From the IMG/VR virus record IMGVR_UViG_3300017989_000003, positions 6,606 through 70,605 of that record: DNA of 64,000 nucleotides; one strand, written 5' to 3'. Origin of the DNA: a virus. Below are positions 2,663-62,525 of this stretch, piece by piece; position 1 is the first letter of the stretch, and every line of letters begins with the position of its first letter. The position numbers and the translations under genes are program-made. The notes under the pieces are model-generated. The model was not told the origin of the DNA and made no database searches. It worked only from the letters and a program-made list of their open reading frames with translations.

Positions 2663-3430
2663 TTGACGCCAATCCCCTTATTCTTACTGTTAGGAATGTT
2701 TATGGGAAAGAAAGAAGTCGGTAAAGTTGGCGCTAAAACAAATTTTCCTCTAGTTGAAAGTCTGTTTTCGGCTAATTTTATTGGCGGCTCAGCGGTTAAC
2801 AAACAAGATTATTACGGGTTTGAGCCACAGAGGCGTAATAATGGATTTTTGTTTGTTCCACTTCAAGAACTTAAGGGTATATCGGGATTTCCAGCATATT
2901 TACCAGGTACTCTTGCGATGGCTCTTAAGAGTGTAGAATTACCGAAAGATGAAAATGAGATTATTGAGCTTGGGTATTTTAACCAAAAAAGGTTTTATGC
3001 TGGGCAACATAGGACACAAGAAATATCTATGGTATTTGTTGACTATGTTGATGTTCCCGTGGCTCACGCTTTAGAGTTTTGGAGAGCGACAGTCTATAAT
3101 GCTGTTAATGGTGCTGTAGGTTGGGCTTCTAGTAGCCCTAAGGCGATTATTCCATCTCTTGCTGGATACAAGCAAGATGTTTTTTTGATGACATTATCAC
3201 CGAATGCTGATTGGGTTTATTCTAAGATTTATATGCTCAAAGGTGCTTTTCCGTCGTCTATAGATAGAGGCGATATTGACTTTGCTGACGAAGATATATT
3301 AGAGATGACTTTAACTATCCACTACGACGAAGTTTTTTTGATATCACATGGATGGATACCTGAAATAGCACTTTATTACAATCCAATGACAGCTGGTGAT
3401 ATAGATATTAAACTTGAAATACCAACATAG
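2663..3430 (+). CDS. Tail tube-like protein (paralog 2); real start probably ATG 2696 or 2702
   Basis: FEPQR, ELGYFNQKRFYAG, FVDYVD and RGDIDFADEDILEMTLTIHYD align by eye with paralog 1. Confidence 0.8.
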   Translation: MTPIPLFLLLGMFMGKKEVGKVGAKTNFPLVESLFSANFIGGSAVNKQDYYGFEPQRRNNGFLFVPLQELKGISGFPAYLPGTLAMALKSVELPKDENEIIELGYFNQKRFYAGQHRTQEISMVFVDYVDVPVAHALEFWRATVYNAVNGAVGWASSSPKAIIPSLAGYKQDVFLMTLSPNADWVYSKIYMLKGAFPSSIDRGDIDFADEDILEMTLTIHYDEVFLISHGWIPEIALYYNPMTAGDIDIKLEIPT

Positions 3431-3437
3431 GCGTATA

Positions 3438-4154
3438 ATGACCTTACCTGTTCCAAGTAGAACACCAACGATGTCAGCTAAATTCTTAGGAAGTGCTCTA
3501 AGATATCGAGATGGTGCGCCTTATGGTGGAACTTTTCAACCTCAGATGTCTTATTTGGGGTTTGTATTATTTAGGTTTGATACATCACTTATATCAGGTT
3601 TTCAGGAGGCTGACAACAAGATAATATTGATGTCACTCGAATCTAGTAGCTTGCCTGAAATTGTAATTAATACGACTACTTTATCCTATAATAATGAGCG
3701 GCGTAAATACCCTACGTCGGCTGAGTTTCCTGATTTTGAACTTACACTTAGAGATTTTGTGGACATACCAACGGCTAGGATAATTGATAAGTGGTTGTAT
3801 CTTATTTACAACGAATATAATGGGGCTATTAATCCAAAGATAGCGTACCGTGTCAATACCTTTGTTTGTCTTATAGACCCTACAGGTAATCTCTCACGGT
3901 ATTATCGTATGATTTGTTTTCCAATAAGTGTAAATTTTGGAAATATTGATGGTAATTCTTCTGATTATGTTAAAATTAATGTAACGCTAGCTATAGATAA
4001 GCTATATCGGGTTCCAGAGGATGAGCTTAAAGACTGGGGTTTATCTGGTGCTGGAACATATCCCAATAGTAGGGATTTTAATTCTCGAAATATTACCCAG
4101 CCTATAGACCTTGGTAAAAAGTTAAAGGTTGGTTTCAACAAACAGGCGTACTAG
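3438..4154 (+). CDS. Tail tube-like protein (paralog 3)
   Basis: FQPQM, TLSYNNERRKYP, LRDFVD and FGNIDGNSSDYVKINVTLAIDK; same motif order as the other paralogs. Confidence 0.78.
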   Translation: MTLPVPSRTPTMSAKFLGSALRYRDGAPYGGTFQPQMSYLGFVLFRFDTSLISGFQEADNKIILMSLESSSLPEIVINTTTLSYNNERRKYPTSAEFPDFELTLRDFVDIPTARIIDKWLYLIYNEYNGAINPKIAYRVNTFVCLIDPTGNLSRYYRMICFPISVNFGNIDGNSSDYVKINVTLAIDKLYRVPEDELKDWGLSGAGTYPNSRDFNSRNITQPIDLGKKLKVGFNKQAY

Positions 4155-5570: not shown

Positions 5571-6827
5571 ATGACTAAAGGTAGTAGACCTAAGAAAAGA
5601 CGTCCTTTATCGAAAGGAAATCCCGAGCAAAGTGTTCCTAAATCATTTCCTACTGTAATAGGTTCTGAGAAGGCTAAAAATATACCTCCAGAGCTTATGG
5701 AGCATCTAACAAACATGGGTGCTTCCAGAGAAAGTTTTGTCCCACCGTCTGCGTCACCAATCCCACCTATTAGGGGTAAAAGACCAAAAGTTAAAGTGTC
5801 TTCGAAAGTTACTGATGTAACAGGTGATGTTCCTGGTAATGTTAGTAACATTACTGACGAAATTCCCGCAAATGATTACGTTGAACAGGATGAGTACGAC
5901 GAGAGCGCAGAAGATGATAATTACGATTATCAATCGCAACCACCTATTCAACAACCACCTATTCAACAACCACCTATTCAACAACCACCTATTCAACAAC
6001 CACCTATTCAACAACCACCTATTCAACAACCACCTATTCAACAACCTGTATCTTACGTGCAGCAGAAACCAGCACATATACGAAGATTTGTTGGGCAGTT
6101 ACCGTCAAAAGGTATTCCATATCGCAGCGTAGGTGCTTATGTTGATGGTAGAATAGATATATGCCCTATGACCACGAAGGAGGAGTCGTTATTGTATTCT
6201 CCTGGTGACTCGTTGGCGCATATCAATAAAATATTGGACAGTTGCATTGTTGATGACGATAAGGCTAAGCTTAGTCCTATTGACTTAACAATAAATGACA
6301 GATTTGCTGTACTTCTTTATATCCGAACATTTTCTTATGGCTCTGAATACGAAATACCGTTTACGTGTGCTTCATGTAATTACTACAACCCAAAAACAAT
6401 TATAGATATATCGTCTGATTTATCTATGAATTTTATGGACGAGGATGCTGAAGAGCCGTTTGAAGTTGATTTACCACGTTCTGGTGATTACATTCATTTT
6501 AGGCTATTGCGTGGTAGAGACGAAGAGACTATCGCCAAATACGCCAAAAGACTCAAGATGCAGTCTACTGACGAAGGTGACCCTTCAAATATTTACCGTT
6601 TGGCGTTATCCATTGTAGGTATTAATGGTATGGAAGTATCTGACTTCGACGCAAAAGTTGAGTACGTTAAGAACATGATTGCTGGTGATGCTAATACGTT
6701 GCGTCTAGCAATTCAAAATGCGGATGGTAGAATTGATACTACGTTGTTTATTGATTGTCCTGCGTGTGGTTTTGCGAACAGATTCGAGATGCCATTTACT
6801 GCTGAATTTTTTCGCCCATCTAGGTAG
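5571..6827 (+). CDS. T4 gp26-like baseplate hub / tail assembly chaperone with a long disordered N-terminus
   Basis: Lies between the tubes and the tape measure. Contains MTTKEES, DRFAVLLYIRTFSYGSEY, two CxxC pairs (CASC, CPAC) and the C-terminus EFFRPS. RBS AAGGAG. Confidence 0.75.
   Translation: MTKGSRPKKRRPLSKGNPEQSVPKSFPTVIGSEKAKNIPPELMEHLTNMGASRESFVPPSASPIPPIRGKRPKVKVSSKVTDVTGDVPGNVSNITDEIPANDYVEQDEYDESAEDDNYDYQSQPPIQQPPIQQPPIQQPPIQQPPIQQPPIQQPPIQQPVSYVQQKPAHIRRFVGQLPSKGIPYRSVGAYVDGRIDICPMTTKEESLLYSPGDSLAHINKILDSCIVDDDKAKLSPIDLTINDRFAVLLYIRTFSYGSEYEIPFTCASCNYYNPKTIIDISSDLSMNFMDEDAEEPFEVDLPRSGDYIHFRLLRGRDEETIAKYAKRLKMQSTDEGDPSNIYRLALSIVGINGMEVSDFDAKVEYVKNMIAGDANTLRLAIQNADGRIDTTLFIDCPACGFANRFEMPFTAEFFRPSR
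5937..6046 (+). repeat. Perfect 15-bp tandem repeat (CAACCACCTATTCAA x7 plus a partial copy) encoding (QQPPI)n
   Basis: The CACCTATT core recurs at 5941, 5956, 5971, 5986, 6001, 6016 and 6031. Confidence 0.97.
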
Positions 6828-32382: not shown

Positions 32383-32839
32383 AAAATGTTTTGGAAAGTT
32401 CAAATATCCTAAGTGTTTAACGCAGCCGTGTAGGCATGAGTGTGTTGATAAGTTTAACTCTGGTCGTAAAATCAAATTTGCCCTAAAACGTCAGAGTAAA
32501 AAAAGGTCTGAGACCAAAAAAATTTATAAGGGTGTGGGAAATGTCAGATTTGATGCTAAAACTGTTAGTAAATTTATTACCAAGGTGCTTAGAGGTATCC
32601 CCCTTAACAAGAATCAGGGAGTTGATGTAATAACGTGGTCTTACCGGAATAAGAGGTTAATATGGCTAAAAAAGGCAAAAAACCAAAAGGTTCAGATAGA
32701 GTTGATAAACGAGATGAGTTGCCCCGGAGCGCGGGTCACGAAGAAGAAGAGGATTTCGATAAGCGTATCATTAGACGACGAGATAAAATTAGAGCAGCTA
32801 AAAGAAAGCATACGTCGCTGGTTTCGCAACCGCAACTAA
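32357..32839 (+). CDS. Hypothetical basic protein overlapping the start of polA
   Basis: 160-aa Lys-rich ORF with N-terminal Cys residues; its last 178 nt overlap polA. Confidence 0.5.
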   Translation: MKMGESFVKKCFGKFKYPKCLTQPCRHECVDKFNSGRKIKFALKRQSKKRSETKKIYKGVGNVRFDAKTVSKFITKVLRGIPLNKNQGVDVITWSYRNKRLIWLKKAKNQKVQIELINEMSCPGARVTKKKRISISVSLDDEIKLEQLKESIRRWFRNRN

Positions 32840-35691
32840 ACTTACACTATCCTGCGGAATTAAAAGATAGCAAGGATGCTAAGATTAAGCGTTGGTTTAA
32901 CGCCGGTTGTTTGCATTGTTACATGTATCCATGCACTGGTTCCCCTATTATGGATAAATTTAAGGGCAAAGCTAGTAAGCAGCAAGAGGATTATTACGTA
33001 AATACCTATAAGGTTTCTGGACGTGGAAATACCGACCCTGCTATACTGTTTGTTGGCGAAGCGCCTGGTTACATGGAAGATAAGCTCGGCAAAGTTTTTG
33101 TTGGGGAATCTGGTAAAATATTACAAGATGCTATTCGGGATTCTGGTATAACTAAGTCATCTAAATGTAGTTGGTATATAGATAATGTTGTGTGTTGTAG
33201 ACCAAATGAGAATAAGACACCCTCATTTACTGAAATGATACCGTGTTCAGCATTTTTAGCGGATAAGATTAAAGAGCTAAATCCATCTGTGATTGTGCCT
33301 CTTGGCGGGTCCCCGCTTAAGATACTACTGAATGATAAAGACGCTAGAATAGGAACTTATGTCGGTAATATTCGGGATATAGAGCTTAGTATGGGTACGT
33401 TTAAGATGTTTCCTATGTGGCATCCTGCTTATATACTCCGTAATATGAATGTTTACGGAGATTACGTATTCTACTTGAAGCGTCTAAAAGACTTCTTGAC
33501 TGGCGATGCGTCTGTGGATGAATCTTTTGATATTGTTATTTCGAAAACTGAAAAGAGCGTGGTTAAGGCTGAGAAAGTAATTCAGAAAATGCTTATTGGT
33601 ACAAAGAAAACTGCATTTGATATTGAGACAGCTTCCGTAGCTGATGTTGAGAATGACGCTCTTAACCCATTTTCTTCGACGTCTAGAATTGTATCTATTG
33701 CATTTACATATGGAAGTGATAAAGCTGTTACTTTATATACTTACCACCCTGATATTAAAGACTCGGTACTTAATAAGAATCGCAAACTAGCGGAACTCAT
33801 TCTTAAGTCTAATATTAGGAAAATAGCCCATAATGCTAAATTTGACGTGTTGTTTATTCTTGAGAAGTGGGGGTTTGAGGTTAATAATCTTGTAGAGGAT
33901 ACATTGCTGACTCATTACAGTCTTGTAACTGAACAGCAGGGTACTCATGGGTTAAAGGCGTTAGCTACTCGATATGCGGGTTTAAGTGACTATTCTGACT
34001 ACGTACGCGATGAGGATATATTTAAGCGGAATCTTGTGTTCTCTATGTCAAAGAAGAAATTTGGGGAGTATAACGCTATGGATGTCATAGCCACTGACCG
34101 TATTAGTAAATCTTTTCGGGAGAAATCCAAAGATTTTATGGTATCTGTTAGTAACCCTGTGGCGTACAAGTTGATGCCAAAAGCTACAATTGCGCTCACA
34201 CGTATGGAACATAATGGTATGTTTATTGATATTGACATTGCCCGCGTAATTAAGAATATTTTTAAGAGAACGCGCAAAATATATAAGTCTAAGATAAGTA
34301 GTCACCACGTCATTAGAAGATACAAAAAATTGTTACCAAAACTACGTGAAAAAGGTGTAGTTGGAAAAACGGTTAAGAAGTTTACGATACGTTCTCATCC
34401 CCAGCTTAGGGTTATACTTTTTGACAAAAAGTTTTTAGGTTTGCCTGTGATTGCCCTCACAAAAAAGGCGAAGCTACCATCGACAAACAATAACGTTATG
34501 ACAACTTTATCCGCTAGGCATGACTGTGACTTATGTGGGTTAATACTGAATTATAGAGGAGTTGATAAGACTTATGGGACATACCTTAAGCCCTTTTACA
34601 AGATGGCTCGGGCAAATAATGGTTATATCCATGGAAGGTTTATGCTTTCAACTACTGTTACAGGTAGGTTGAGCAGTGTATCTCCAAATCTCCAAAATAT
34701 TCCTAACAAAAGTGCAGGACATGTTAAACGACTTGTAGTGTCTAGATATGGGGATGATGGTCTTATTCTTAGTATTGACTACTCTCAGTTGGAACTACGT
34801 GTTCTTGCAGCGCTGAGTGGCGATGAGAAAATGATGTCTGCTTACAAAGAGGGCAAGGATTTGCACAGGCTAACCATGTTGTCAATATATGGAATATCTG
34901 AGGAAGAGTATAATTCGTATGATAAGGATAAACAGGTTCTAATGAGAACTGTGGCTAAGAGAGTCAATTTTGGGGTTATATACGGTATTACCGCTGGTGG
35001 TATAGTAAACATATTAGAAGGTGAGGGCATTGTTATCGAGGAAGACGAAGCTGAGCTTTATATTGGTAGATTTTTTGAAGCGTATCCTGGCGTCGAGGAA
35101 TTTATCCAGAATGTTAAGGGCAAAATGTATGAGGATGGAGTGGCTGTATCAGCGTTTGGTCGTGTTAGGCGTTTTGCTGAGGCTCTTCTCGCGTCGTATT
35201 TAAGAAAAATAGCAGGCTATGATTCTCCGCATCTATATGGAACTTTAAGTAAGTCTGAACGCCAGGCGGCGAATCATGTTATACAATCTACTGCTAGTGA
35301 TTTAACATTATGTAGCCTGATAGCTTTTGACGATTGGTTAATTAAGCAGGATGTTGAGAAGGCTAAAACATTCGCTGTTATACATGATGCTATTGACGTG
35401 GATGTGAAACGGGAGTACGCTGTTGAAGTTATACAGAAACTTATTCATATCATGGAGCATGTACCTGAGTACTCTAATCTTATATTTACTAAGAAATTGG
35501 GTATTAATTGGGATTTTTTTAACCAAGTTCCCATTAAGGCTGATGCTGATATTGGGGTTAATTGGAGGGATATGGTGTCTTTAGAAGGTGAAATTACGGA
35601 CATAAATATCAGCAAATTACTTAATAAGTCGCTAGAGCGCCAAAACGAAGTTGACGCAGATTTGTTGGAGGGTAATTATTATGAAGGATAA
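32662..35691 (+). CDS. polA: Family A DNA polymerase with an N-terminal family-4 uracil-DNA glycosylase-like domain (SPO1-type architecture)
   Basis: UDG motifs GEAPG and HPAYILR; exonuclease motifs FDIET and HNAKFD; polymerase motifs DYSQLELR, AKRVNFGVIYG and IHD. RBS GAGG. Confidence 0.95.
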   Translation: MAKKGKKPKGSDRVDKRDELPRSAGHEEEEDFDKRIIRRRDKIRAAKRKHTSLVSQPQLNLHYPAELKDSKDAKIKRWFNAGCLHCYMYPCTGSPIMDKFKGKASKQQEDYYVNTYKVSGRGNTDPAILFVGEAPGYMEDKLGKVFVGESGKILQDAIRDSGITKSSKCSWYIDNVVCCRPNENKTPSFTEMIPCSAFLADKIKELNPSVIVPLGGSPLKILLNDKDARIGTYVGNIRDIELSMGTFKMFPMWHPAYILRNMNVYGDYVFYLKRLKDFLTGDASVDESFDIVISKTEKSVVKAEKVIQKMLIGTKKTAFDIETASVADVENDALNPFSSTSRIVSIAFTYGSDKAVTLYTYHPDIKDSVLNKNRKLAELILKSNIRKIAHNAKFDVLFILEKWGFEVNNLVEDTLLTHYSLVTEQQGTHGLKALATRYAGLSDYSDYVRDEDIFKRNLVFSMSKKKFGEYNAMDVIATDRISKSFREKSKDFMVSVSNPVAYKLMPKATIALTRMEHNGMFIDIDIARVIKNIFKRTRKIYKSKISSHHVIRRYKKLLPKLREKGVVGKTVKKFTIRSHPQLRVILFDKKFLGLPVIALTKKAKLPSTNNNVMTTLSARHDCDLCGLILNYRGVDKTYGTYLKPFYKMARANNGYIHGRFMLSTTVTGRLSSVSPNLQNIPNKSAGHVKRLVVSRYGDDGLILSIDYSQLELRVLAALSGDEKMMSAYKEGKDLHRLTMLSIYGISEEEYNSYDKDKQVLMRTVAKRVNFGVIYGITAGGIVNILEGEGIVIEEDEAELYIGRFFEAYPGVEEFIQNVKGKMYEDGVAVSAFGRVRRFAEALLASYLRKIAGYDSPHLYGTLSKSERQAANHVIQSTASDLTLCSLIAFDDWLIKQDVEKAKTFAVIHDAIDVDVKREYAVEVIQKLIHIMEHVPEYSNLIFTKKLGINWDFFNQVPIKADADIGVNWRDMVSLEGEITDINISKLLNKSLERQNEVDADLLEGNYYEG

Positions 35692-44391: not shown

Positions 44392-44812
44392 AGTGCGAAT
44401 AGTCTACGATAAAGAAGCGGTCAGGTCTTGGGGAAATCGTCATGAGCCGGGAAATACTCCAGATGATTTAGAGAGAAAAGTCATAGAAAAATTAACTCTT
44501 ATCGGAAAGTGGATGCTCGCCGATAAAGTTATATTCCACGATTACGATAAGGGACAAGCCTACTATATTATTAAAGGCGACAAAATGCTTGTATTGTCGG
44601 CACTTTCGACGCCGATTGATGGAGGGTGGATTAACTTTGACGAAAAGGCTATTCCCGATAAATTCAAAGACCCCGCGTTTTGCCCGGATAGTATGAAATA
44701 CGTTGAAATCAACGGGGTTTATTTCAGAGAAATAGACGCAAAAACGGGGTTACCCACAGGTGAATTTTATCACGAAAAATTAGAAGAAGGAGGAAATAAT
44801 GCAACTAGTTAA
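44381..44812 (+). CDS. Hypothetical protein
   Basis: 143-aa ORF overlapping both neighbours. Confidence 0.6.
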   Translation: MEVKVRIVYDKEAVRSWGNRHEPGNTPDDLERKVIEKLTLIGKWMLADKVIFHDYDKGQAYYIIKGDKMLVLSALSTPIDGGWINFDEKAIPDKFKDPAFCPDSMKYVEINGVYFREIDAKTGLPTGEFYHEKLEEGGNNATS

Positions 44813-46418
44813 TCCAAAAGTAATCGTGTATAAAATGCACGAATTTGACGTAATCAAAAAACTCATTGAAATCAACGCTCGACGTTGTTGGCGCTCAGAG
44901 GATAGAATCGGCGAAGGTTCTGCCGACAAAATCATCAAGTTTCTTCGAGACAAAGGGCATCACGCAATGCTCGAATTCGGTGTTATTGCCGTTGAAATCA
45001 CTTGCGACCGCGGAATTAGTCATGAAATTGTGCGTCACAGACTAGCGTCTTACGCGCAACAGTCTACAAGGTACTGTGATGAGGGTAGCGAGAAAAAATT
45101 CGGTGGAGTTAATTTTATCGAGCCATTTTTCTTTGACGAATATGACGATGCTTCTGACGACGATAGAAAAGATATACAATTGCCGCATCCAATACCTGTT
45201 ACATGTATTTCGGTTGGTAGTAAAGCACCAAAAATAACTCCTTGGCATTTTGTAAATGCAGATAAAGGAAGTAAACATTCAATGACCGCGTGGGACGTGT
45301 GGTTCATATCCTGTTTATGGTCTGAGTGGGCTTACAATACACTTCGAAATGAATTTGGAGCAAAACCTCAAGAAGCGCGTGCGGTGCTTCCTAACTGCCT
45401 AAGAACTGTAATTGGAATGCAAGCATCTATTCGTGAGTGGCGTCATGTGCTCAAGCTTCGGTGCCACAAAGATGCACACCCACAAATTAGACAAGTTATG
45501 ATTCCGCTGCTTAAGTTCTTCCAAAAAGAACTGCTTGTATTATTCGAGGATATCGAATACGACGATACGTACAAAGGCGAAAAGATTCCATTACCAGAAG
45601 TCGAAGTAGTCGAGGTTTATGACGAGTTCATCTATAGTAATACGAAAGCAGCAGCATATTGCGAAATACATGACCCGCGCCCTTACGAAGAACCTTACTG
45701 TGACGACGCCGAGGAAGAGGAAGATACTGACGATGAGGATATTTCTAAGGAAGAAGTAAAATTGCATGAGAAACAAAAGTTGCGTTGTGTAGAAATTGAA
45801 TGTCCTTGGCTTGATGAAATCGGTTGCAGAAATCCAGATGGGGCAGAATGTCCAATAAGAAAGAATTTTATTATAGCAACAGTAGGTATTAAGGCGGACG
45901 AACCAACAGCAAATGGCGACATTTACCCACGTGAAGTTGTCGAGAAGATGGTTAATGACGTGAAGGATAAAACTATACTTTTGTATCCATCACAGCCTTT
46001 GGGTGTAAGTGAAGATTCACAAGAAGCTATCGGAGAAGTAGAAAAATTGGAAATTAACAATAACAATGAATTGATTATGAACTGTAAAATTCTTAAACAC
46101 AAAGATGACTTTCCTATTTCAAAATTAATTGAAGATGGGCTTGTTAAAGTCGTACCTAGTGGTGTTGGTAAGTTCGAAGTTGATTCCCAAATTGTAGAGG
46201 AGTTCCAAATAACAAGCTTTGGGGTTGTCGAAACACAACCTATGAAAGAAATGGCACCAATACCCAAAGATACGGTGAAGAAGGTCATAGACTATCTTCA
46301 AGGTATTGCAGGTTCAAGGAAGGCGAGTTTAGGCGACCATCAATCTTATGATGCTTTACTGCCTGTCAAACAAACCGACGGGTTGCTTGATGAACTTAAA
46401 CAAATATTGGAGGATTAA
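44799..46418 (+). CDS. thyX: Flavin-dependent thymidylate synthase ThyX with a C-terminal extension (acidic linker, 4-Cys motif, gp21 protease-like domain)
   Basis: GHHAMLEF, DRGISHEIVRHRLASYAQQSTRY, ARAVLPN and AHPQIR. Confidence 0.93.
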   Translation: MQLVNPKVIVYKMHEFDVIKKLIEINARRCWRSEDRIGEGSADKIIKFLRDKGHHAMLEFGVIAVEITCDRGISHEIVRHRLASYAQQSTRYCDEGSEKKFGGVNFIEPFFFDEYDDASDDDRKDIQLPHPIPVTCISVGSKAPKITPWHFVNADKGSKHSMTAWDVWFISCLWSEWAYNTLRNEFGAKPQEARAVLPNCLRTVIGMQASIREWRHVLKLRCHKDAHPQIRQVMIPLLKFFQKELLVLFEDIEYDDTYKGEKIPLPEVEVVEVYDEFIYSNTKAAAYCEIHDPRPYEEPYCDDAEEEEDTDDEDISKEEVKLHEKQKLRCVEIECPWLDEIGCRNPDGAECPIRKNFIIATVGIKADEPTANGDIYPREVVEKMVNDVKDKTILLYPSQPLGVSEDSQEAIGEVEKLEINNNNELIMNCKILKHKDDFPISKLIEDGLVKVVPSGVGKFEVDSQIVEEFQITSFGVVETQPMKEMAPIPKDTVKKVIDYLQGIAGSRKASLGDHQSYDALLPVKQTDGLLDELKQILED

Positions 46419-54248: not shown

Positions 54249-56093
54249 ATGCGAGTATTAACAATAACGGCTGTTAATTTTATGTCGTTTAAGTCCCTAA
54301 AGTTGGATTTGCGCGAATTTTATGGCGTTACGCTGATAAATGGGCGAAATGGTTCAGGTAAGAGCACGTTACTCGAAGCAATATCATGGGCTATATTTGG
54401 TAAGACTATTCGTAAAACAAGAGCAGATGATGTAATTCATTCCGATGCGAATGCTTGCGAGGTATGGTTAGAAATTGAAACGCCTAATGACACTTTTGAG
54501 ATTAGACGTAGACGTGAGCGTGGAAGTGGCACAACTCTATCGTTTAGTAGCGTGACTGACGGTACTAACAAGGGCAAGCAAGCTCTTTTAGAGCAATATT
54601 TAGGGTTTGACTATCAATACTTTACAAGTACGGTTCTATTTGCTGGTAGTACTTCGTCGTTTTGTAGGCTTACTGACTCTGCTAGAAAGAAGGTTCTCGA
54701 AGAGTTGCTTGGCTTTGATGCTTATGCTAAAGCTTACGTAAAGGCGCAGAAAGACAAAAATACGTATGAAAGTAGGCTATCCCAGATAAAATCGCAGATA
54801 TTTGGAAAAGAACAGGAAGTTAGTAATCTTCAGGAAAGTCTTGCTGAGTATACCGAGGAGTCACGTATATTTGACTTTAGGTGGCAATCTAACTATATTG
54901 ATTTTATTAAGGATATAGGAGAATTGCAAGAAGAGGAACATACTCTGATAGATGAAATGCTAAATAACGAGATTATTACGACGGATATAAGAGATAGTTA
55001 TATGCAGAGAGTGGAGAAGTATAACTCCCAGAAAAAAAGATACACTACAAGTTTAAGACGTATCAGCCAGGAGCTTCGGGAGGTAGTGGGAAAGATTTCA
55101 GCTATTAAGGAGCGTGTTAAAGTAGCAAAGAAAGACGTGATTGATAAAAGCGACGCTAACGCAAAACAAGAAGAAGGTATTTGTCCTTTTTGCGGTCAGT
55201 ACTTACCGAGAGCTTTTGAGAAAAGGGTGTATGCCGTACAACCTTTGCGAGATGAACTTGAGAAATTAGAATCTGAATACAAAGAGCACGTTAATAAGCA
55301 ATCTAGTCTTGAAACAGAGTTTGATGACATAGAGTCTAAACTAAATTCATTAGAAGAGCCTGACGAACCTGATTATTCGGTTGTCAGTAGGTTAAAGGTT
55401 GAGTTGCGTAATAATCGAATATCGCAAAGTTCTGCGTGGGTTAAGGTACGGAAACACATTAATGACAGTGACAATAGATTTGTGACACTGATTAGCAACG
55501 CTGAGTTAAAAATTAAGTCTGCACTGTCCCAAATAGACAAATTGAAGTCTGAGGCAATCGACGTTGAGGAATACCTGTTTGTAGCAGAATATTGGATGAA
55601 GGCGTTTCATTATAATGGTATCCCTTCGTACCTGCTTGATAATTTGTATCCTGTAATAAATAAGTGCGCAGTTAGCCATTCTGAGTTTTTAACAGATGGT
55701 GACCTTAAGATACGCTTTAGGAATGATGACGGTAATTTGGGACTAGATGTCTCTTATAGTGATGGCGGAGATGCTTACGATATTGTGTCTACTGGTGAAA
55801 AGACTCGAGTTGACCTAGTTGTGTTATTATCTATTCGTGATGCCATTGAGTTTACGTATAGTAGTTCGTTCTCACAGTTATTCCTAGACGAGATATTTAA
55901 CGGTTTAGATGAGTCTGGCGTAGAGTCCGCGATGAATTTACTCCGTAAGAATTTCAAGGATAAACAGGTATTTTTAATAACTCATGAGAGTTCTCTTAAG
56001 GATTTGGCTGATAATGTCATTAATGTCGTAAAAACAAATGATGGTTCATTTGTAAGTGACATTTGTCGTCAAGGGGTATTTTGCAACCGGTAA
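54249..56093 (+). CDS. sbcC: SbcC/Rad50/gp46-like ATPase
   Basis: NGSGKST, CPFC zinc hook, STGEK signature, LFLDE and LITH. Confidence 0.95.
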   Translation: MRVLTITAVNFMSFKSLKLDLREFYGVTLINGRNGSGKSTLLEAISWAIFGKTIRKTRADDVIHSDANACEVWLEIETPNDTFEIRRRRERGSGTTLSFSSVTDGTNKGKQALLEQYLGFDYQYFTSTVLFAGSTSSFCRLTDSARKKVLEELLGFDAYAKAYVKAQKDKNTYESRLSQIKSQIFGKEQEVSNLQESLAEYTEESRIFDFRWQSNYIDFIKDIGELQEEEHTLIDEMLNNEIITTDIRDSYMQRVEKYNSQKKRYTTSLRRISQELREVVGKISAIKERVKVAKKDVIDKSDANAKQEEGICPFCGQYLPRAFEKRVYAVQPLRDELEKLESEYKEHVNKQSSLETEFDDIESKLNSLEEPDEPDYSVVSRLKVELRNNRISQSSAWVKVRKHINDSDNRFVTLISNAELKIKSALSQIDKLKSEAIDVEEYLFVAEYWMKAFHYNGIPSYLLDNLYPVINKCAVSHSEFLTDGDLKIRFRNDDGNLGLDVSYSDGGDAYDIVSTGEKTRVDLVVLLSIRDAIEFTYSSSFSQLFLDEIFNGLDESGVESAMNLLRKNFKDKQVFLITHESSLKDLADNVINVVKTNDGSFVSDICRQGVFCNR

Positions 56094-56110
56094 CGAATTA
56101 CCCCTTGACA
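56056..56110. repeat. Dispersed palindromic element, copy 4 (supplies the sbcC stop codon)
   Basis: GTGACATTTGTCGTCAAGGGGTATTTTGCAACCGGTAACGAATTACCCCTTGACA. Confidence 0.92.
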
Positions 56111-56132
56111 TTTTAGGCTATGTGTATACAAT
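56105..56132 (+). promoter_or_regulatory. Sigma70-type promoter upstream of the packaging operon; its -35 comes from the palindrome's right arm
   Basis: TTGACA (56105-10), 16 nt, TACAAT (56127-32). Confidence 0.7.
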
Positions 56133-56149
56133 ATATAGTGGAGGTTTTT

Positions 56150-56857
56150 ATGGGAAGTGACCATTCTTTTGTACCATGTCAGTATTGCGAGGAAGATACA
56201 GAGCCAGACTCTTTGTATACTATATGCAAAGATGGGTTGTTTTTCTCCGTTTGTATGAAGTGTCTGGCAGTTTATAAACCTCAAGAGGTTTTTGCTAAGA
56301 TGATAGAGGAAGGGGTATCTTCAGTTATTCCAGCTAGTAGCCAAGTTGTGTCTAATAGGTACTTAACGTGTCCGGTGTGTTCGGGTAGTTATGTAGAGAC
56401 TGATTTTGTCGTGTTGATATACGACGATGAAACAGTTCCTTATGGAAGTGATGGTATCGTCATATGCAAAGGTTGTTTTAGGAGTAAGTTTGAGGGAACT
56501 TACCTTAAGAATCCTGATAAAACACTAGATAAAATAGCTAGTAAGAATCTTACAGTAGCTGAGATAGTCACGACTAAACAAGTAGAGTCGTTATCAAAGT
56601 TCCATGACATAATAGACAGTAAAGTTCCAAGAGTAGAGACAGAGGGATTTGATTGTGTAATTTGCAAATCTCACTTTTCGTCTAGGGAAATGGCTTATGT
56701 TATTCCTTACGAATGTGACGCTACTCTCGGAGTATACACTCCGAAGTCTGAGAGCAAGGTCTGTGTTGATTGCTATAAGAAGTTATGGATAGTTGCAGCT
56801 CAGAGAGTACCGTCTAATATATACAAAACTGTAATGGAAGCTATGGTTGAGTTATGA
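56150..56857 (+). CDS. Protein with six CxxC pairs (three predicted Zn fingers)
   Basis: CQYC, CMKC, CPVC, CKGC, CVIC and CVDC. RBS GGAGG before ATG 56150. Confidence 0.75.
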   Translation: MGSDHSFVPCQYCEEDTEPDSLYTICKDGLFFSVCMKCLAVYKPQEVFAKMIEEGVSSVIPASSQVVSNRYLTCPVCSGSYVETDFVVLIYDDETVPYGSDGIVICKGCFRSKFEGTYLKNPDKTLDKIASKNLTVAEIVTTKQVESLSKFHDIIDSKVPRVETEGFDCVICKSHFSSREMAYVIPYECDATLGVYTPKSESKVCVDCYKKLWIVAAQRVPSNIYKTVMEAMVEL

Positions 56858-57633
56858 CACTAGATATACCTCTTACACCTGATGAGATAAAATTGGCTAA
56901 GAAATACGTAGTCCATGGAGAGGCTGCGCTCTTATCTGCTGGTTTAACCCCTAATGAGGTGTCATCATTCCTAAATAGGTATGATATTCAGTATTTCCTT
57001 AAGACTTTATATAAGGATTTCGAATTTAAGGACTCGAGATGGGAAAGGGTACAATTTTATGCGCTTAGCGAGCTAGAGAAGTTAATGGCTCAAGCTTTGT
57101 CAGTTATAGCTAGGTCTTTAATGGGCATAACATCAGACATGACTGATTTACCGCCGTCTGGACAGCAGTATAAGGCTGCTGTAGACTTACTGGATAGGTT
57201 AGGCGTTAAAGTTAACCAGCAACCTGCTAACAATCAGGAGAATCCAACTATTGCCCTAAACAGTATTAATGTGAATATAAGCGAAGACATAGATTCAGTG
57301 TCTAGAGAGAGAATACTGACGATGGTTGATATGTTCGTCGGTGGGGCAGATAAAGTTGTTAGTACAGACGATGACGTTACGCGTTCGGTAAATGTAAAAA
57401 AGTTACCTATGGTTGATGATTTACCTGAAGCGCGCGATAGATTGAAAGATTTACATGTGAGGAAAAGTTCAAATGGCGGAAAACCAGAAAAAATCAAAAA
57501 AGAAAAAAAGCTCGAAAAACGAAATGTTCGAAAAAGACCCTCTTCTAAAGATAACGAACCTAAAAACGACAAAAAACGTAGGGGAAGTAAACCTAGCAAA
57601 AAAACTATACCAGGAACATCTACACAAAAGTAG
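56854..57633 (+). CDS. Putative terminase small subunit
   Basis: Helical protein directly upstream of terL, with a basic disordered tail. Assignment is positional only. Confidence 0.45.
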   Translation: MTLDIPLTPDEIKLAKKYVVHGEAALLSAGLTPNEVSSFLNRYDIQYFLKTLYKDFEFKDSRWERVQFYALSELEKLMAQALSVIARSLMGITSDMTDLPPSGQQYKAAVDLLDRLGVKVNQQPANNQENPTIALNSINVNISEDIDSVSRERILTMVDMFVGGADKVVSTDDDVTRSVNVKKLPMVDDLPEARDRLKDLHVRKSSNGGKPEKIKKEKKLEKRNVRKRPSSKDNEPKNDKKRRGSKPSKKTIPGTSTQK

Positions 57634-60600
57634 GAAGTTCTTTGATTCATTGTCACCTAATGAACAGAAAGTAGCCTTAGAGATATTTAATGAGTTACGT
57701 AGTAATGACGGTGATAGTCCGTTATATGACCATATCTGGGAACTTGATTACATCGAAAAGCCTGTACCCATATGGAAATTTTTAGAAGATGACTTTTATG
57801 CTGGTTGGATAGTTCCTGACTTATACCCTAAATGGCGTGAGATGCTAGAAGAGATATTTGCGCCTGGTTCACAATATTATGAAGTTATTCTAGGTGGCTC
57901 TATTGGTTCTGGAAAGACTACTAGTGCTGCTATTGCATACGTTTATTTACTCTATAGGTTAACCTGCCTTAGAAACCCAGCTAAGTATTATAACCTTGTG
58001 GAACGTTCCAGAATTGTTTTTGGAGTGTACTCAATGACTAAACGTCTTGTAGCTGACGTTGGTTATGGGCGTATAAGGGCTTTTATTGAGAGAATGCCAT
58101 ATTTTAGGACTAAATTTCCACATGACCATAGAATACTACAAAAAGTTAATTTCAAGAAAGCTGATGTATCAGTGGTTTATGGTTGTGTATCTGAAGGCAC
58201 TAAGATAGCTACACCCTGCGGTGATGTCGCGGTAGAACAACTAGCTAATACGTCCAGTGAGGTACTGACATCATATGGTAGCGACGTTTTCTCGAGTGAG
58301 TATAAAGGCGTTAAGTACTCAGGTGTAAAAAAATGCTTGGAAGTAATAACTGAAACAGGTGACAGCCTTGTTTGTAGTTACGACCATAAATTTATAGTAG
58401 AGGGTTCAAATGGAAGTTACATTAGAAAAAAAGCAGGCGAACTCAAAGAAGGTGAAGAAGTGTTCGTGCTGCGCGAAATTGATGCCAATAACCGAGTTCT
58501 ACATGAATCGCGGAAAACCTTTTTCACAATGCAAGGAATGTGTGAAGAAGAAAAGCAACAAGAGATACCACAATACAAAAAAGTGCAAGGACAAGAAAGC
58601 ACACTCGGTAACAGAGGGAACGAAGAAGTGCTCAAAATGCGGTGTGGTAAAACCAGTAAGCGAGTTCGGAACTCGAGTTGTAAAATTAGTGAATTCAGAA
58701 AAAAGATACCTAAGAGGCAATTGCAAAGAGTGCGATGCGGAATTTTCCAGGAAATGGGCGAGCAAGAACAGGGAGAAAAAGAAAAAGAAACGTCAAACGG
58801 AAGAAGGGAGAGAATACGACCGAAAAATCTGTGCGAATTACTACAAGAAGAACCGAGAGAAAATTCTAGCGGAAAAGGCTCGCCCAGAGAACAGGAAACA
58901 TATAAATGCCCGGCAGCGAAAATGGAGAGCAAAGAATCCGGAGAAACTCAAGGAATACAGGAAAAAATGGAAGGAAAAGCATCCGGAACGCACGCAGCGA
59001 ATTTTAATGTTACGTCACCAACGACGGAAATCACGGAAGAAGAATGTAGAGTTTACCCTAACAGAAAAAGACGTTGCATTTATGATGGGTTATTTTGGTT
59101 ATTCTTGTGTTTATTGTGGAAAGGATATAAGCAAGTATTCTACCATAGACCATATTATTCCTGTAGCAAAAGGCGGAGGGACAACTCCTCAAAACATAGT
59201 TCCTTGTTGCAGGAAATGCAACAGCAGGAAATATACTCGGAATCTGGAGGAGTTTGTAGAAGATTTTCCGAATGGGAAAAAAATATACCAAAAAATTATG
59301 AGGTATATAAAACATGTATCAAATCTATAACTGATGTTGGGTATAGAAAAACATATGATGTTGTAGAAGTTCCTAAGACGCATAGCGTTTTTACAAATAA
59401 TATATTAACCTCAAATTCCCAGGAATTTCATGTGCTCGGGCAGGACGTTTTTTCCATGTACATGGACGAAGTAAACTTTATGCAAGATAAAGTGACTGCG
59501 CCAAATAAAGCTGCTAGTATGTCAGAGGAGTTAGGGCAAGCTCAGGAAATTTACAATGCTGCTAGAAGTCGTATTAAATCCAGATACATGCGTCCAGGGG
59601 GTTATGTTCCTGGTATGACCTTTCTACTGTCGTCTAAAACTAGCAAGCACTCATTTCTGGAAAGACATGTTCAAAAAGTTAGACATGAGATAGAAGAAAA
59701 GAAAGTGTTCTTAGCTGAGTATGCATTGTGGGAGGTTAAGCCCCAGTCACTATATGTAAAACCTAAGTTTAGAGTACAGTTAGGAAATGCGCTGCATCCT
59801 AGTAGGATATTAGAGGAATACGAAACTCACAAAGATGGCACTGAGGTCATTGAAGTACCTGGGGAATTCAAAGAAGATTTTGAGCGAAATACCGAACGTG
59901 CTCTTAGGGAAATAGCTGGAAGAGCTACTGTAGGAATATCACCACTTTTCCGAATAAAAGAACCGATTATTAAGTGTGTAGATGGGCGTAAACACCCATT
60001 TACACAGGATATAATTAAAATTTCTATTTATTCTGACATTGAAATAGTGGACTACCTTATGGTAAATGAGCTGTTTCATGTGAAAGACTCTGATTATGTT
60101 CCACGTTTGAATCCTGGAAGTCCAAGAGTTGTACATTTGGATTTGTCGCGCAAAAAGGATGCTGCTGGATTCTGCATGGGTCATATAGGCGGATTGCGCG
60201 AAGTTAAAAAGATGCGCTATGATAACACATATTATATCGACAAAGAGCCTATGATTGTCATTGACATTATTATGGCTATTAAGTTATTAGGAGAGGGCGA
60301 GATTGACTTCTCTAAAATCAGGGCTTTTATTATAGCACTTAAGGAGTATGGGTATCCAATAACTCATGTGACGGCTGATAAATACCAATCGGCTGATACC
60401 CTTCAGATATTCTCGAAGTTGGGATACAAGACAGCGTTTTTGTCTGTAGACGAACGCCCTGAGCCATATCATTATACTAGGCAGGCGTTTGTTGAGGATA
60501 GAATACGAATATACGACTATCCATTATTAATAAGGGAACTGATAGACCTTGAGGAGGATTTGGATAGTGGTGTTATAGACCATCCTAACGTAGCAAGTGA

Positions 60601-60895
60601 CGGTTCTGTTGGGTCTAAAGATACGTCTGACGCATTAGCAGGAGTTGTGTACACACTCATGAACGAAAAGAGTGTAATGAAGGGGGCAACTGTTACTAAT
60701 TTAACTTCAGTATCTTTAGCAGAATCTACCCCAACGTCTTCTCCTAATAAAACTGATTTGATAACTGTCCGTGGTGAAATGAAAATTTCTTTAGACCATA
60801 TGGCAGATGAAGTGATAAAATACATTAACCTACATAAAAGTTCTAACTCATTATTCGAGGGGTTACAAGATGCCGATGACAACAAAAAAGGCTAG
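57473..60895 (+). CDS. terL: Terminase large subunit precursor containing a 411-aa intein (mature protein about 729 aa)
   Basis: Walker A GGSIGSGKT; the spliced junction VVYG|SQEFHVLGQDVFSMYMDEVNF restores the Walker B region; nuclease motifs VHLDLS, TADKYQS and KDTSDALAG. Confidence 0.95.
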   Translation: MAENQKKSKKKKSSKNEMFEKDPLLKITNLKTTKNVGEVNLAKKLYQEHLHKSRKFFDSLSPNEQKVALEIFNELRSNDGDSPLYDHIWELDYIEKPVPIWKFLEDDFYAGWIVPDLYPKWREMLEEIFAPGSQYYEVILGGSIGSGKTTSAAIAYVYLLYRLTCLRNPAKYYNLVERSRIVFGVYSMTKRLVADVGYGRIRAFIERMPYFRTKFPHDHRILQKVNFKKADVSVVYGCVSEGTKIATPCGDVAVEQLANTSSEVLTSYGSDVFSSEYKGVKYSGVKKCLEVITETGDSLVCSYDHKFIVEGSNGSYIRKKAGELKEGEEVFVLREIDANNRVLHESRKTFFTMQGMCEEEKQQEIPQYKKVQGQESTLGNRGNEEVLKMRCGKTSKRVRNSSCKISEFRKKIPKRQLQRVRCGIFQEMGEQEQGEKEKETSNGRRERIRPKNLCELLQEEPRENSSGKGSPREQETYKCPAAKMESKESGETQGIQEKMEGKASGTHAANFNVTSPTTEITEEECRVYPNRKRRCIYDGLFWLFLCLLWKGYKQVFYHRPYYSCSKRRRDNSSKHSSLLQEMQQQEIYSESGGVCRRFSEWEKNIPKNYEVYKTCIKSITDVGYRKTYDVVEVPKTHSVFTNNILTSNSQEFHVLGQDVFSMYMDEVNFMQDKVTAPNKAASMSEELGQAQEIYNAARSRIKSRYMRPGGYVPGMTFLLSSKTSKHSFLERHVQKVRHEIEEKKVFLAEYALWEVKPQSLYVKPKFRVQLGNALHPSRILEEYETHKDGTEVIEVPGEFKEDFERNTERALREIAGRATVGISPLFRIKEPIIKCVDGRKHPFTQDIIKISIYSDIEIVDYLMVNELFHVKDSDYVPRLNPGSPRVVHLDLSRKKDAAGFCMGHIGGLREVKKMRYDNTYYIDKEPMIVIDIIMAIKLLGEGEIDFSKIRAFIIALKEYGYPITHVTADKYQSADTLQIFSKLGYKTAFLSVDERPEPYHYTRQAFVEDRIRIYDYPLLIRELIDLEEDLDSGVIDHPNVASDGSVGSKDTSDALAGVVYTLMNEKSVMKGATVTNLTSVSLAESTPTSSPNKTDLITVRGEMKISLDHMADEVIKYINLHKSSNSLFEGLQDADDNKKG
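58184..59416 (+). mobile_element. Class 1-type intein in TerL (Cys1...Ser-Asn / Ser+1)
   Basis: Block A CVSEGTKIAT; block B LVCSYDHKF followed by AGELKEGEEV; block F KTYDVVEV; block G VFTNNILTSN|S. Confidence 0.92.
58410..59330 (+). CDS. HNH homing endonuclease encoded in the +1 frame inside the intein
   Basis: Own RBS AGAGGG, ATG 58410 and TAA 59328-30. Two KKCxxC..K/M P..EF Zn fingers and CVYCG...TIDHIIPVAKGG...NIVPCCRKCNSRK. Confidence 0.93.
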   Translation: MEVTLEKKQANSKKVKKCSCCAKLMPITEFYMNRGKPFSQCKECVKKKSNKRYHNTKKCKDKKAHSVTEGTKKCSKCGVVKPVSEFGTRVVKLVNSEKRYLRGNCKECDAEFSRKWASKNREKKKKKRQTEEGREYDRKICANYYKKNREKILAEKARPENRKHINARQRKWRAKNPEKLKEYRKKWKEKHPERTQRILMLRHQRRKSRKKNVEFTLTEKDVAFMMGYFGYSCVYCGKDISKYSTIDHIIPVAKGGGTTPQNIVPCCRKCNSRKYTRNLEEFVEDFPNGKKIYQKIMRYIKHVSNL

Positions 60896-62525
60896 GCTAG
60901 CCGCATTATTTGGAATTGACTCCCATGTTACTAGACCTAAGGAAGAGCGACCAGTTGCTGAGTCTGACGGTGATGACTATGCCTATGGTAGGCTAAGAGG
61001 TGACATTCTCCAGATGATACTTCGAATGCCGCGCAGTAGAACTGACAGGTATGCTTTGTTGGACGACCTGGATGAGGGTATTGCCGCGTCTGTATTAGAT
61101 TTATATACTGAAGAAACAACCCAGCCAATTCGCGAGTCTAAGCCTCAAGTTCCCATAATAATTAAGAGTGAGAACAAAGCTATTGAAAAGGAAGGAAATG
61201 CACTGCTTAATAAACTTGGCATATCCAGTAATCCTCAGCCGTTAATGCGTGTTATATGCAAGTACGGTGATTTGTTTTACAGGTTGTTTTATAGTGGCGA
61301 GAAAGGCATAGAGTACGGATACATTATAAAAAATCCAGGGACAGTAAGTCGGGAGGAAAGTGACCAGAAGGTTCTAACTGGTTTTAAGCAGGTTGGTGTT
61401 CGTTTCGAAAAGGGTAAAGAACAATCAGACCCGTGGGATTATGTCCACTTTGCTAATTTATTGCATCCAGAGAATTTTCCGTATGGTACGGCAATCCTTA
61501 GTAATTCATATCGTTCTTTGCGGCAGATAATACTATCTGAGGACTCGGTGTTGCTTTACCGTCTTATCCGTCATCCTGACAGATTGTATCATGTTATTGA
61601 TACAGGAGATGCTGACGAAGTTGAACAAAGAAGACAGTTACGTCGGTACGCTTCGGACTTTCGTCGAAGTCAGAATATTAATCCGTCGGTAGGCACCATG
61701 ACGCATAGACATGCGCCTATGACTCCATTGGAAGATATATTTATCGCGATAGGTAACCAGAACGTTAATACGAAAATAGATAAGTTGCCTGGGTCTAGTA
61801 ATGCCTTTGAGGTATATGACCTTGATTACTACATTAATAAATTTTTCTCTGAGGTTAGAGTACCAAAAGCGTTTTTAGGCTTTGAAGGTGACATTAACGC
61901 CAGAGCGACATTAACTAGTCAGTCAATTAGATTTGCGAGAGCGGTTATTCACATGCAGTCAGTGTTAAAAAAGGGTATCAAGCGATTGCTTATGATACAT
62001 TATACTCTTTTGACTAAGAGTAATACTGACCAAACGTACAAGACTGACGAAGATGGCTCTAACTTTAATATAGAAATGTGTTATACGTCAGGGCTAGCTG
62101 AGCTTGATTGGATTAGTCTGATGTTACAACGTTCTGAATACGCCCAGACTCTTTATGCGTACGCTGACAATCCATATATCGATAACCATGCTATGCTGAA
62201 TTACCTTTTCAGGGATATACTAAAGTTGAAAGAAGATGACATTAGTAAGATTGTGCTGAAATCTCCTGTATACCCAGTGCCGCCTAAAGAACAATATCCT
62301 AACATATCTAATATGCGTAAGGCTCGAGTGAAGGGTGTTACACCTCAGGAACAGGAATATGCCAAAGCTATAGTAAAGTCGATTCCATTCAATAGCTTTG
62401 TAGATGAAATACAAGCGTATCTTGAGGACGTAAAACAATTGCATATTGAATCCAATAGACCAGTTACGCCCATTGACCCACGTTCTGCTTTACCTAATAA
62501 TAGTGGTAGTAAAAGTGGGCGGTAG
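60870..62525 (+). CDS. Portal protein (T4 gp20-like)
   Basis: KYGDLFY, DYVHF, YGTAIL, EDSVLLYRLIRHPDR, EDIFI...KLPG and VPKAFLG. Confidence 0.93.
   Translation: MPMTTKKARLAALFGIDSHVTRPKEERPVAESDGDDYAYGRLRGDILQMILRMPRSRTDRYALLDDLDEGIAASVLDLYTEETTQPIRESKPQVPIIIKSENKAIEKEGNALLNKLGISSNPQPLMRVICKYGDLFYRLFYSGEKGIEYGYIIKNPGTVSREESDQKVLTGFKQVGVRFEKGKEQSDPWDYVHFANLLHPENFPYGTAILSNSYRSLRQIILSEDSVLLYRLIRHPDRLYHVIDTGDADEVEQRRQLRRYASDFRRSQNINPSVGTMTHRHAPMTPLEDIFIAIGNQNVNTKIDKLPGSSNAFEVYDLDYYINKFFSEVRVPKAFLGFEGDINARATLTSQSIRFARAVIHMQSVLKKGIKRLLMIHYTLLTKSNTDQTYKTDEDGSNFNIEMCYTSGLAELDWISLMLQRSEYAQTLYAYADNPYIDNHAMLNYLFRDILKLKEDDISKIVLKSPVYPVPPKEQYPNISNMRKARVKGVTPQEQEYAKAIVKSIPFNSFVDEIQAYLEDVKQLHIESNRPVTPIDPRSALPNNSGSKSGR

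Follow-up and report, generated by a model that had tools for sequence, protein, structure and literature searches.

What occupies the endonuclease slot of an intein whose own reading frame is open throughout but carries no nuclease motif? The question is raised by the gene for the large terminase (TerL) of an uncultured phage, seen in a window of 64,000 nucleotides (nt; positions 6,606 to 70,605 of IMG/VR record IMGVR_UViG_3300017989_000003). A first-pass annotation, made from the sequence alone, had placed in this slot a separate HNH endonuclease gene, overprinted on the intein in the +1 frame. It gave coordinates for the intein and the HNH gene, a Shine-Dalgarno (SD) site and the details of the dual coding, all of which were exact when compared with open reading frame (ORF) calls, Pfam matches and a codon-by-codon reading (Table 1). 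The central idea of an out-of-frame, separate gene also stood, on the strength of stop-avoidance statistics, frame-specific conservation, structure models and its recurrence in eight lineages. We consider it likely that the locus is a homing endonuclease gene of the free-standing type, nested out of frame in a splicing-competent intein within the essential terL gene.

In the HNH ORF, two zinc ribbons of the pattern CxxC...CxxC (58461-58541 and 58629-58733) are accompanied by a helical region rich in Lys and Arg and by an HNH motif at 59106-59240. The ORF is matched by HNH_5 (PF14279; 1.7e-14, 53.9 bits against a cut-off of 27.5) and HNH (PF01844; 2.3e-13, 50.5 bits against a cut-off of 21.4), and the HNH endonuclease of PDB entry 4h9d matches it at 1.4e-8. 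AlphaFold2 modelled this frame with a mean predicted local distance difference test score (pLDDT) of 88.3, as two zinc-ribbon hairpins, a long helical region and an HNH core. The gene also has candidate translation signals of its own. Its frame reads TAG TAG just before the ATG, and the SD duplex of that ATG with the 16S tail scores -6.3 kcal/mol, close to the median of the window's long ORFs (-6.0) and within the top 8% of all ATGs; since 68% of the long ORFs score <= -4 kcal/mol, this phage uses SD sites. At both ends the gene runs into bases that encode the splicing lobes: those for EEVFVL also read KKCSCC, and the HNH stop lies within Ser-Ile-Thr codons. No second copy of the HNH was found in the phage's own genome, and the nested protein is missing from the protein database, though the 1081-amino-acid (aa) TerL is there.

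In the TerL frame, the insert matches Intein_splicing (PF14890) at 4e-9, above the cut-off, and has Cys1, S-Y-D-H in block B, T-Y-D-V-V-E-V...T-H in block F, Asn411 and Ser+1. The catalytic residues are conserved across four aligned inteins (the window's and three related ones), and the N and C lobes are 47-62% and 45-64% identical to those of relatives (L007, P0019 and P0020 for the N lobe). AlphaFold2 gave a confident Hint fold for residues 1-106 and 369-411, both lobes scoring mostly about 85-95 pLDDT, with the 262 residues between them below 50. The input alignment had only two rows for this middle and four for the lobes, but as the lobes reached about 90 on four rows only, the contrast is still meaningful. 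A Foldseek search with the intein model matched the Mtu RecA mini-intein (3ifj; E 2.6e-6, template modelling score 0.59, root-mean-square deviation 1.9 Å) and 37 more inteins; phmmer found no significant match to the intein among PDB sequences, so a fold search was needed to find the likeness. The middle of the intein frame had been called motif-less, which agrees with its lack of any Pfam domain and its low pLDDT.

Table 1. Features of the terL locus, in window coordinates.
Feature	Position	Strand	Remarks
Class-1 intein, 411 aa	58184..59416	+	Between ...VVYG and SQEFH... of TerL
N-terminal splicing lobe, residues 1-99	58184..58480	+	pLDDT 75-95
Intein-frame linker, residues 107-368	58502..59287	+	No motif, no Pfam domain, pLDDT <50 throughout
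C-terminal splicing lobe, residues 369-411	59288..59416	+	pLDDT about 70-96
HNH endonuclease gene, 306 aa	58410..59330	+ (+1 frame)	ATG 58410, TAA 59328-59330
Shine-Dalgarno-like AGAGGG	58399..58404	+	5 nt upstream of the HNH ATG; within intein codons V-E-G
5' dual-coding overlap	58410..58480	+	Bases for the HNH start and first Cys pair also encode the last N-lobe strands (GELKEGEEVFVLRE / ...KKVKKCSCCAKL)
3' dual-coding overlap	59288..59330	+	HNH C-terminal helix and TAA share bases with the start of the C lobe
Large terminase (TerL), longest ORF	57473..60895	+	ORF call; stays open through the intein
T4-type portal gene (context)	60870..62525	+	Portal_T4 7.5e-42

Over the HNH ORF the intein frame contains no stop codon, and the third plus-strand frame contains 26. 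The region is T-poor, with an AT skew of up to 0.6, and chance openness of the intein frame therefore had to be tested. A stop arises in the intein frame only if an HNH codon ends in T and the next one starts with AA, AG or GA; such positions are common in this protein because it is rich in Lys, Glu, Asn, Asp and Arg. The first-pass annotation had claimed selection on both frames and suggested a recoding simulation, which bore the claim out. With the HNH protein held fixed and synonymous codons taken from the window's other genes (17,651 codons), exact dynamic programming gave 36.6 expected stops in the intein frame and a probability of 2e-22 for none; using the HNH's own, already biased codon usage, the probability was still 1.5e-10. 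T-ending codons make up 0/77 of the HNH codons in stop-creating contexts, compared with 62/126 in safe ones (Fisher 6e-17), and their share in the same risky contexts is 53% in other genes of the phage. Overall, third-position T falls to 0.20 in the HNH ORF, from 0.40 in phage genes. About 32 free-standing HNH relatives have 7-126 stops in the equivalent frame, which is usually the most stop-rich frame of all. Taken with the stop statistics, this means that the open intein frame is maintained by selection. Between the two well-formed splicing lobes, the linker of about 260 aa is predicted to be unstructured, and freedom from stops is all that selection maintains in it. Two minus-strand ORFs in the region, of 171 aa (58417-58932) and 88 aa, have no family match or other support and are by-products of the T-poor plus strand.

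Is this layout peculiar to one phage? The first-pass annotation had proposed a search of TerL inteins for HNH ORFs in alternate frames, and seven more lineages were found. An exhaustive, profile-free search with TerL returned 3725 relatives, of which the top 150 cluster representatives were inspected; 13 of these best 150 have a homologous intein (393-467 aa) at the window's TerL site, and no in-frame nuclease domain was found in any of the ten that were scanned. All four checked at the DNA level (L044-L047) have no stop in the intein frame and an HNH homologue of 330-420 codons in frame +1 (tblastn 8e-42 to 3e-59). Another relative, P0022 (locus L007, GC content 57%), has a 427-aa intein with a motif-less middle and a 352-codon HNH ORF in the +1 frame. 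Two more (L040 and L041) were found by scanning viral contigs with the intein alignment; similar scans with the C-extein or a single intein sequence found nothing, and one with a single HNH gave one weak match. Among 50,697 deposited phage genomes, blastn found no match to the terL region. Including the window, this makes eight DNA-verified lineages with a GC content of 39-63% (47-63% for the seven besides the window).

In all eight, the TerL frame is unbroken, with no stops, so these are not fractured genes or split inteins, and the HNH ORF is intact over 306-420 codons and passes the Pfam HNH thresholds. The seven other HNH proteins are 30-41% identical to the window's and have the same +1 offset. 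Even the closest pair shares no more than some 40% identity, with saturation at synonymous sites. Comparing the window with L007, the HNH frame aligns end to end (33% identity, 177 bits, E 8e-58), while the intein frame of the same DNA gives 23% identity and 24.6 bits. Across the eight lineages, mean pairwise identity is 31.9% for the HNH frame and 36-37% for the splicing lobes, versus 19.0% for the middle of the intein frame. Eight zinc-ribbon cysteines and the motif C..C-DH...N...C..CN..K are invariant. The codons for the first CxxC of the HNH always fall in the last part of the N lobe (intein residue 91-103) and the HNH stop always lies 7-31 codons before the end of the intein, so the overlap with both splicing lobes is a trait of the family. 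A start candidate with an SD score of <= -5 kcal/mol is located 4-35 codons before the first Cys in 7/8 lineages. Stop avoidance recurs as well: the probability of zero stops is 1e-8 for L007 (third-position T in 0/74 risky and 60/209 safe contexts), 5.6e-5 for L040 (0/66 in stop-creating contexts) and 3.8e-5 for L041 (0/73), and the third frame has 26, 14 or 8-28 stops across lineages. These comparisons show that the HNH frame is under purifying selection at the protein level, that the intein frame across the HNH is selected only against stops, and that at least eight diverged phage lineages inherited the out-of-frame arrangement from an ancestor.

The database relatives of the window's HNH are all stand-alone genes, the closest being phage genes of 170-320 aa, and a metagenome scan for HNH relatives found only free-standing ones. 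The free-standing relatives often adjoin terminase genes, and terminase-adjacent HNH proteins are known packaging cofactors in some cos phages. The HNH could accordingly serve the phage, as a packaging cofactor associated with the terminase or as a weapon against the DNA of competing phages or the host. We consider this unlikely, considering what close relatives have at the same site. The mini-intein alleles predicted to occur at the VVYG/SQEF site do exist, in P0019 and P0020 (C-exteins about 52% identical), which have mini-inteins at exactly this position, and the site is empty in P0021, P0023 and P0024, the last with a C-extein 78% identical to that of L007 and yet no intein. The mini-intein of P0019 has no HNH remnant. 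That of P0020 (L039:3844-4338, residues 782-946) keeps the last ~45 HNH codons and their stop in the +1 frame, with 57.5% identity to residues 266-305 of P0002 (E 1e-13). Judging by this remnant, it is an internal deletion of an HNH-bearing intein with both frames preserved, and its breakpoints appear to lie just ahead of the first Cys pair and at the CC..CN motif. The empty, mini and truncated alleles show that the HNH is dispensable for packaging. Furthermore, this HNH occurs only together with this intein at this site (8/8). Full, truncated, mini and empty alleles at a single site are the stages expected of a homing cycle, and they lend indirect support to a putative homing function for the HNH.

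The TerL family is an intein hot spot more generally, as observed in the alignment of relatives (P0019, P0020, P0021, P0041 and P0043). Besides those at the VxxG|S site, there are mini-inteins before or after the Walker A motif in P0019 and P0020, and LAGLIDADG inteins after GxGK in P0020 and P0021, giving P0020 three inteins in total. Further TerL inteins lie downstream in P0034 (with an in-frame HNH_3), P0031 and P0041.

Two other explanations deny the HNH ORF a life of its own, and we regard both as very improbable. One is that programmed ribosomal frameshifting or transcriptional slippage joins the HNH to the intein lobes. A run of seven A residues (A7, 58426-58432) in the 5' overlap, downstream of the stops in the HNH frame but ahead of the first Cys pair, could in principle allow slippage: an mRNA lacking one of these A residues would fuse the N lobe with the HNH frame. 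However, the run is not conserved in L007 or L008, the C lobe could be reached only by a second shift, in the opposite direction, ahead of the HNH stop, and most lineages have a start codon with its own SD site. The selection against stops all along the intein frame shows, moreover, that the unshifted frame is read from end to end. The other is that the HNH ORF is a decaying, dead relic and only terL and the intein are functional. The mini-intein relatives show that the HNH can be lost, and no RNA run was found to hold the sequence. A neutral frame, though, would carry many stops, as the third frame does, whereas this ORF is intact, recognised by Pfam and invariant in its cysteines and HNH motif in eight lineages that have diverged to about 32% identity.

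The weakest candidate, which we regard as next to impossible, is that two compensating indels from sequencing or assembly mask an HNH intein of the usual in-frame type: one shift somewhere in 58400-58470 (where the A7 run is a typical place for indel errors) and another back before 59330 would in principle fuse the frames, but the first-pass rejection of paired errors is upheld by gap-free contigs, by the same +1 offset in seven lineages from other samples, by the TAG TAG in the HNH frame just before the ATG, and by an avoidance of stop-creating third-position T that would be pointless if the intein frame were unread. The contigs come from Logan (4 runs in 3 studies) and agree letter for letter over 57400-61000 (0 substitutions, 0 gaps). 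As these are assemblies, one step removed from the reads, and the source sample may be among the runs, their support against indels is limited, which makes the independent lineages the stronger argument.

Several observations nevertheless weigh against a homing endonuclease gene nested in a splicing intein. At the candidate starts of L007 there is no SD-like site. For the full-length HNH model, Foldseek gave no match at E <= 0.001, with the HNH domains of Cas9 and Cap5 appearing at a weak E of about 0.03 (probability 0.9-0.99). The penultimate residue of block G is Ser (..LTSN|S) in place of the usual His, as in all the relatives aligned; some active inteins lack a penultimate His, which leaves the class-1 assignment standing. 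There is no RNA run holding the terL/intein sequence, so that we infer both translation of the HNH and splicing. Finally, the divergence of the intein roughly tracks that of the extein; recent horizontal homing is therefore not demonstrated, and a long vertical descent with losses fits equally well.

On the reading we favour, the locus is a composite selfish element: a class-1 intein at a conserved TerL site, whose endonuclease-insertion loop is occupied by an HNH homing endonuclease gene of the free-standing type, on the same strand but in the +1 frame. TerL would be translated straight through, and the intein would fold round a floppy linker and splice itself out, restoring ...VVYG-SQEF.... 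That it splices is suggested by the essentiality of TerL together with the selection that holds the frame open. The HNH would be made separately, by internal initiation at its ATG behind its own SD site. In co-infections it would cut intein-less terL alleles, the repair of which would copy the intein and the HNH together (homing). Most likely, the arrangement goes back to a mini-intein that was invaded by an HNH gene of free-standing origin. Insertions that interrupted the intein frame would not have been viable, and selection would have kept the frame open ever since.

We also considered, tentatively and with some doubt, that the out-of-frame layout is an evolutionarily stable design and not a passing stage that leads to an in-frame intein nuclease. 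The reason is that the layout has been held within one TerL-intein family while the HNH diverged to ~32% identity and GC content spread over 39-63%, and that in every case the HNH begins and ends within codons of the splicing lobes. If the design is stable, its advantage may be that the nuclease, being a free protein, can have its amount and timing governed by its own start site, independently of splicing, a decoupling that the first-pass annotation had also suggested, and the family would be a natural test bed for a 'splicing-first, nuclease invades later' origin of inteins.

The first-pass annotation knew of no described case, and on this point it was mistaken, since inteins with out-of-frame nucleases have already been published (Gosselin et al, 2025; Phillips et al, 2026), with a related case in a phage methylase (Arsenault et al, 2025). 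Gosselin, Arsenault & Gogarten (bioRxiv 10.1101/2025.01.02.630785) described actinophage inteins, many of them in TerL, with non-canonical nuclease layouts. These include nucleases on the antisense strand (LAGLIDADG and Vsr-like) and an EndoVII-like nuclease (IPR004211) in 'frame 3', with HNH only as an in-frame domain, and the authors propose intein invasion by a free-standing gene. The locus described here resembles theirs in having a true intein with an open frame and, between its splicing blocks, a nuclease that is read in another frame of the same strand and related to free-standing phage nucleases. It differs in the nuclease (a PF01844/PF14279 HNH with two zinc ribbons), in the frame (+1) and in the source, as theirs are cultured actinophages and ours are uncultured phages with a T4-type portal from sediment and seawater samples. 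Phillips, DeSimone & Gogarten (bioRxiv 10.64898/2026.09.14.751524) reported a cyanobacterial dnaX intein with an out-of-frame LAGLIDADG nuclease, citing Gorbalenya 1998 for this kind of intein. There too, the nuclease ORF overlaps within the intein and its frame evolves under purifying selection, with relaxed selection on the intein frame. Alleles with a mini-intein occur alongside empty ones, and the authors propose that a mini-intein was invaded secondarily. However, that host gene is cellular, and its nuclease is a LAGLIDADG in frame +2.

Other known systems share single aspects of the arrangement. The ShiLan-type insert in a phage methylase hides an out-of-frame HNH (Arsenault et al, Genes 2025; PMC11855218), similarly nested in a stop-free host ORF whose product is predicted to form a loop. 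It lacks splicing domains, so its insert stays in the protein, and it has no detectable ribosome-binding site, whereas the window has a complete intein to remove the insert and an HNH with such a site. Split inteins whose halves flank a free-standing nuclease gene (Dassa et al, 2009; PMC2677866) fit the same model of endonuclease invasion, but consist of two ORFs with trans splicing and GIY-YIG or Vsr-like nucleases, unlike the continuous host frame and predicted cis splicing here. An intein and an HNH nuclease are also combined in phage genes by the canonical HNH inteins (Dalgaard et al, 1997, cited in Gosselin et al, 2025), where the nuclease is in frame and forms one of the domains of the intein polypeptide, unlike the separate gene product predicted here. 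An HNH in the +1 frame of a true, continuous intein is absent from the papers of Gosselin, Phillips, Arsenault and Dassa, and novelty is limited to this variant of nuclease and frame and to a well-populated family.

To the published cases the window adds exact statistics for stop avoidance, eight lineages over a wide range of GC content, an overlap with both lobes and a truncated-HNH allele. Gene callers miss the nested nuclease; inteins that seem to be without an endonuclease may therefore be mobile, and surveys limited to in-frame nucleases under-count active elements. For intein evolution, the empty, mini, truncated-HNH and full-HNH stages at one site provide material for the model of mini-intein invasion. 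As an overlapping gene pair, the locus is a clean natural example of one frame selected only to be stop-free, and the avoidance of third-position T before codons starting with AA, AG or GA is a simple statistic for finding more cases. If splicing is confirmed as real, tolerance of a roughly 260-aa unstructured insert would be of interest for intein engineering.

A different host gene shows a comparable nesting. In L043:1058-3616 (IMGVR_UViG_2124908012_000095), an unrelated host ORF of 853 aa has an intein (Hint_2 2.8e-8), inside which a +2-frame ORF (2779-3483, 234 aa) matches HNH_3 (PF13392) at 2.2e-15. By these matches, L043 is a second, different architecture with an out-of-frame HNH in an intein.

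The IMG/VR record that holds the window is a complete viral record of 155,386 bp with direct terminal repeats, and identical sequence was found in sediment and seawater metagenome samples. The true start of TerL is uncertain because the longest ORF overlaps the upstream gene (end 57633); in the database, the gene (P0018, 1081 aa) is called from 57650. P0018 and its relatives have an MJ0330_N domain (PF27249), and in each the T4-type portal comes next, in the same order in all relatives. The upstream order is also common to the window (54249-57633) and L007:1-3053, namely an SbcC/Rad50-like ATPase, two small ORFs, terL and the portal gene. One of the ORFs upstream of terL (56854-57633, 259 aa) shares 160 nt with the longest terL ORF and is without a Pfam match; it may be the small terminase subunit. 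In L007, the portal gene beside terL (L007:6427-9423) encodes more than 1000 aa with a weak Intein_splicing match and may carry an intein too.

Two genes elsewhere in the window have unusual domain content. First, a ThyX-like ORF (44799-46418) encodes 539 aa, of which the Thy1 domain spans residues 20-244 only, leaving a C-terminal ~290 aa unexplained; thymidylate synthase is among the intein hosts listed by Gosselin et al (bioRxiv 10.1101/2025.01.02.630785). Second, a family-A DNA polymerase of 1009 aa (32662-35691) has an N-terminal domain of the uracil-DNA-glycosylase superfamily fused to its 3'-5' exonuclease and polymerase domains.

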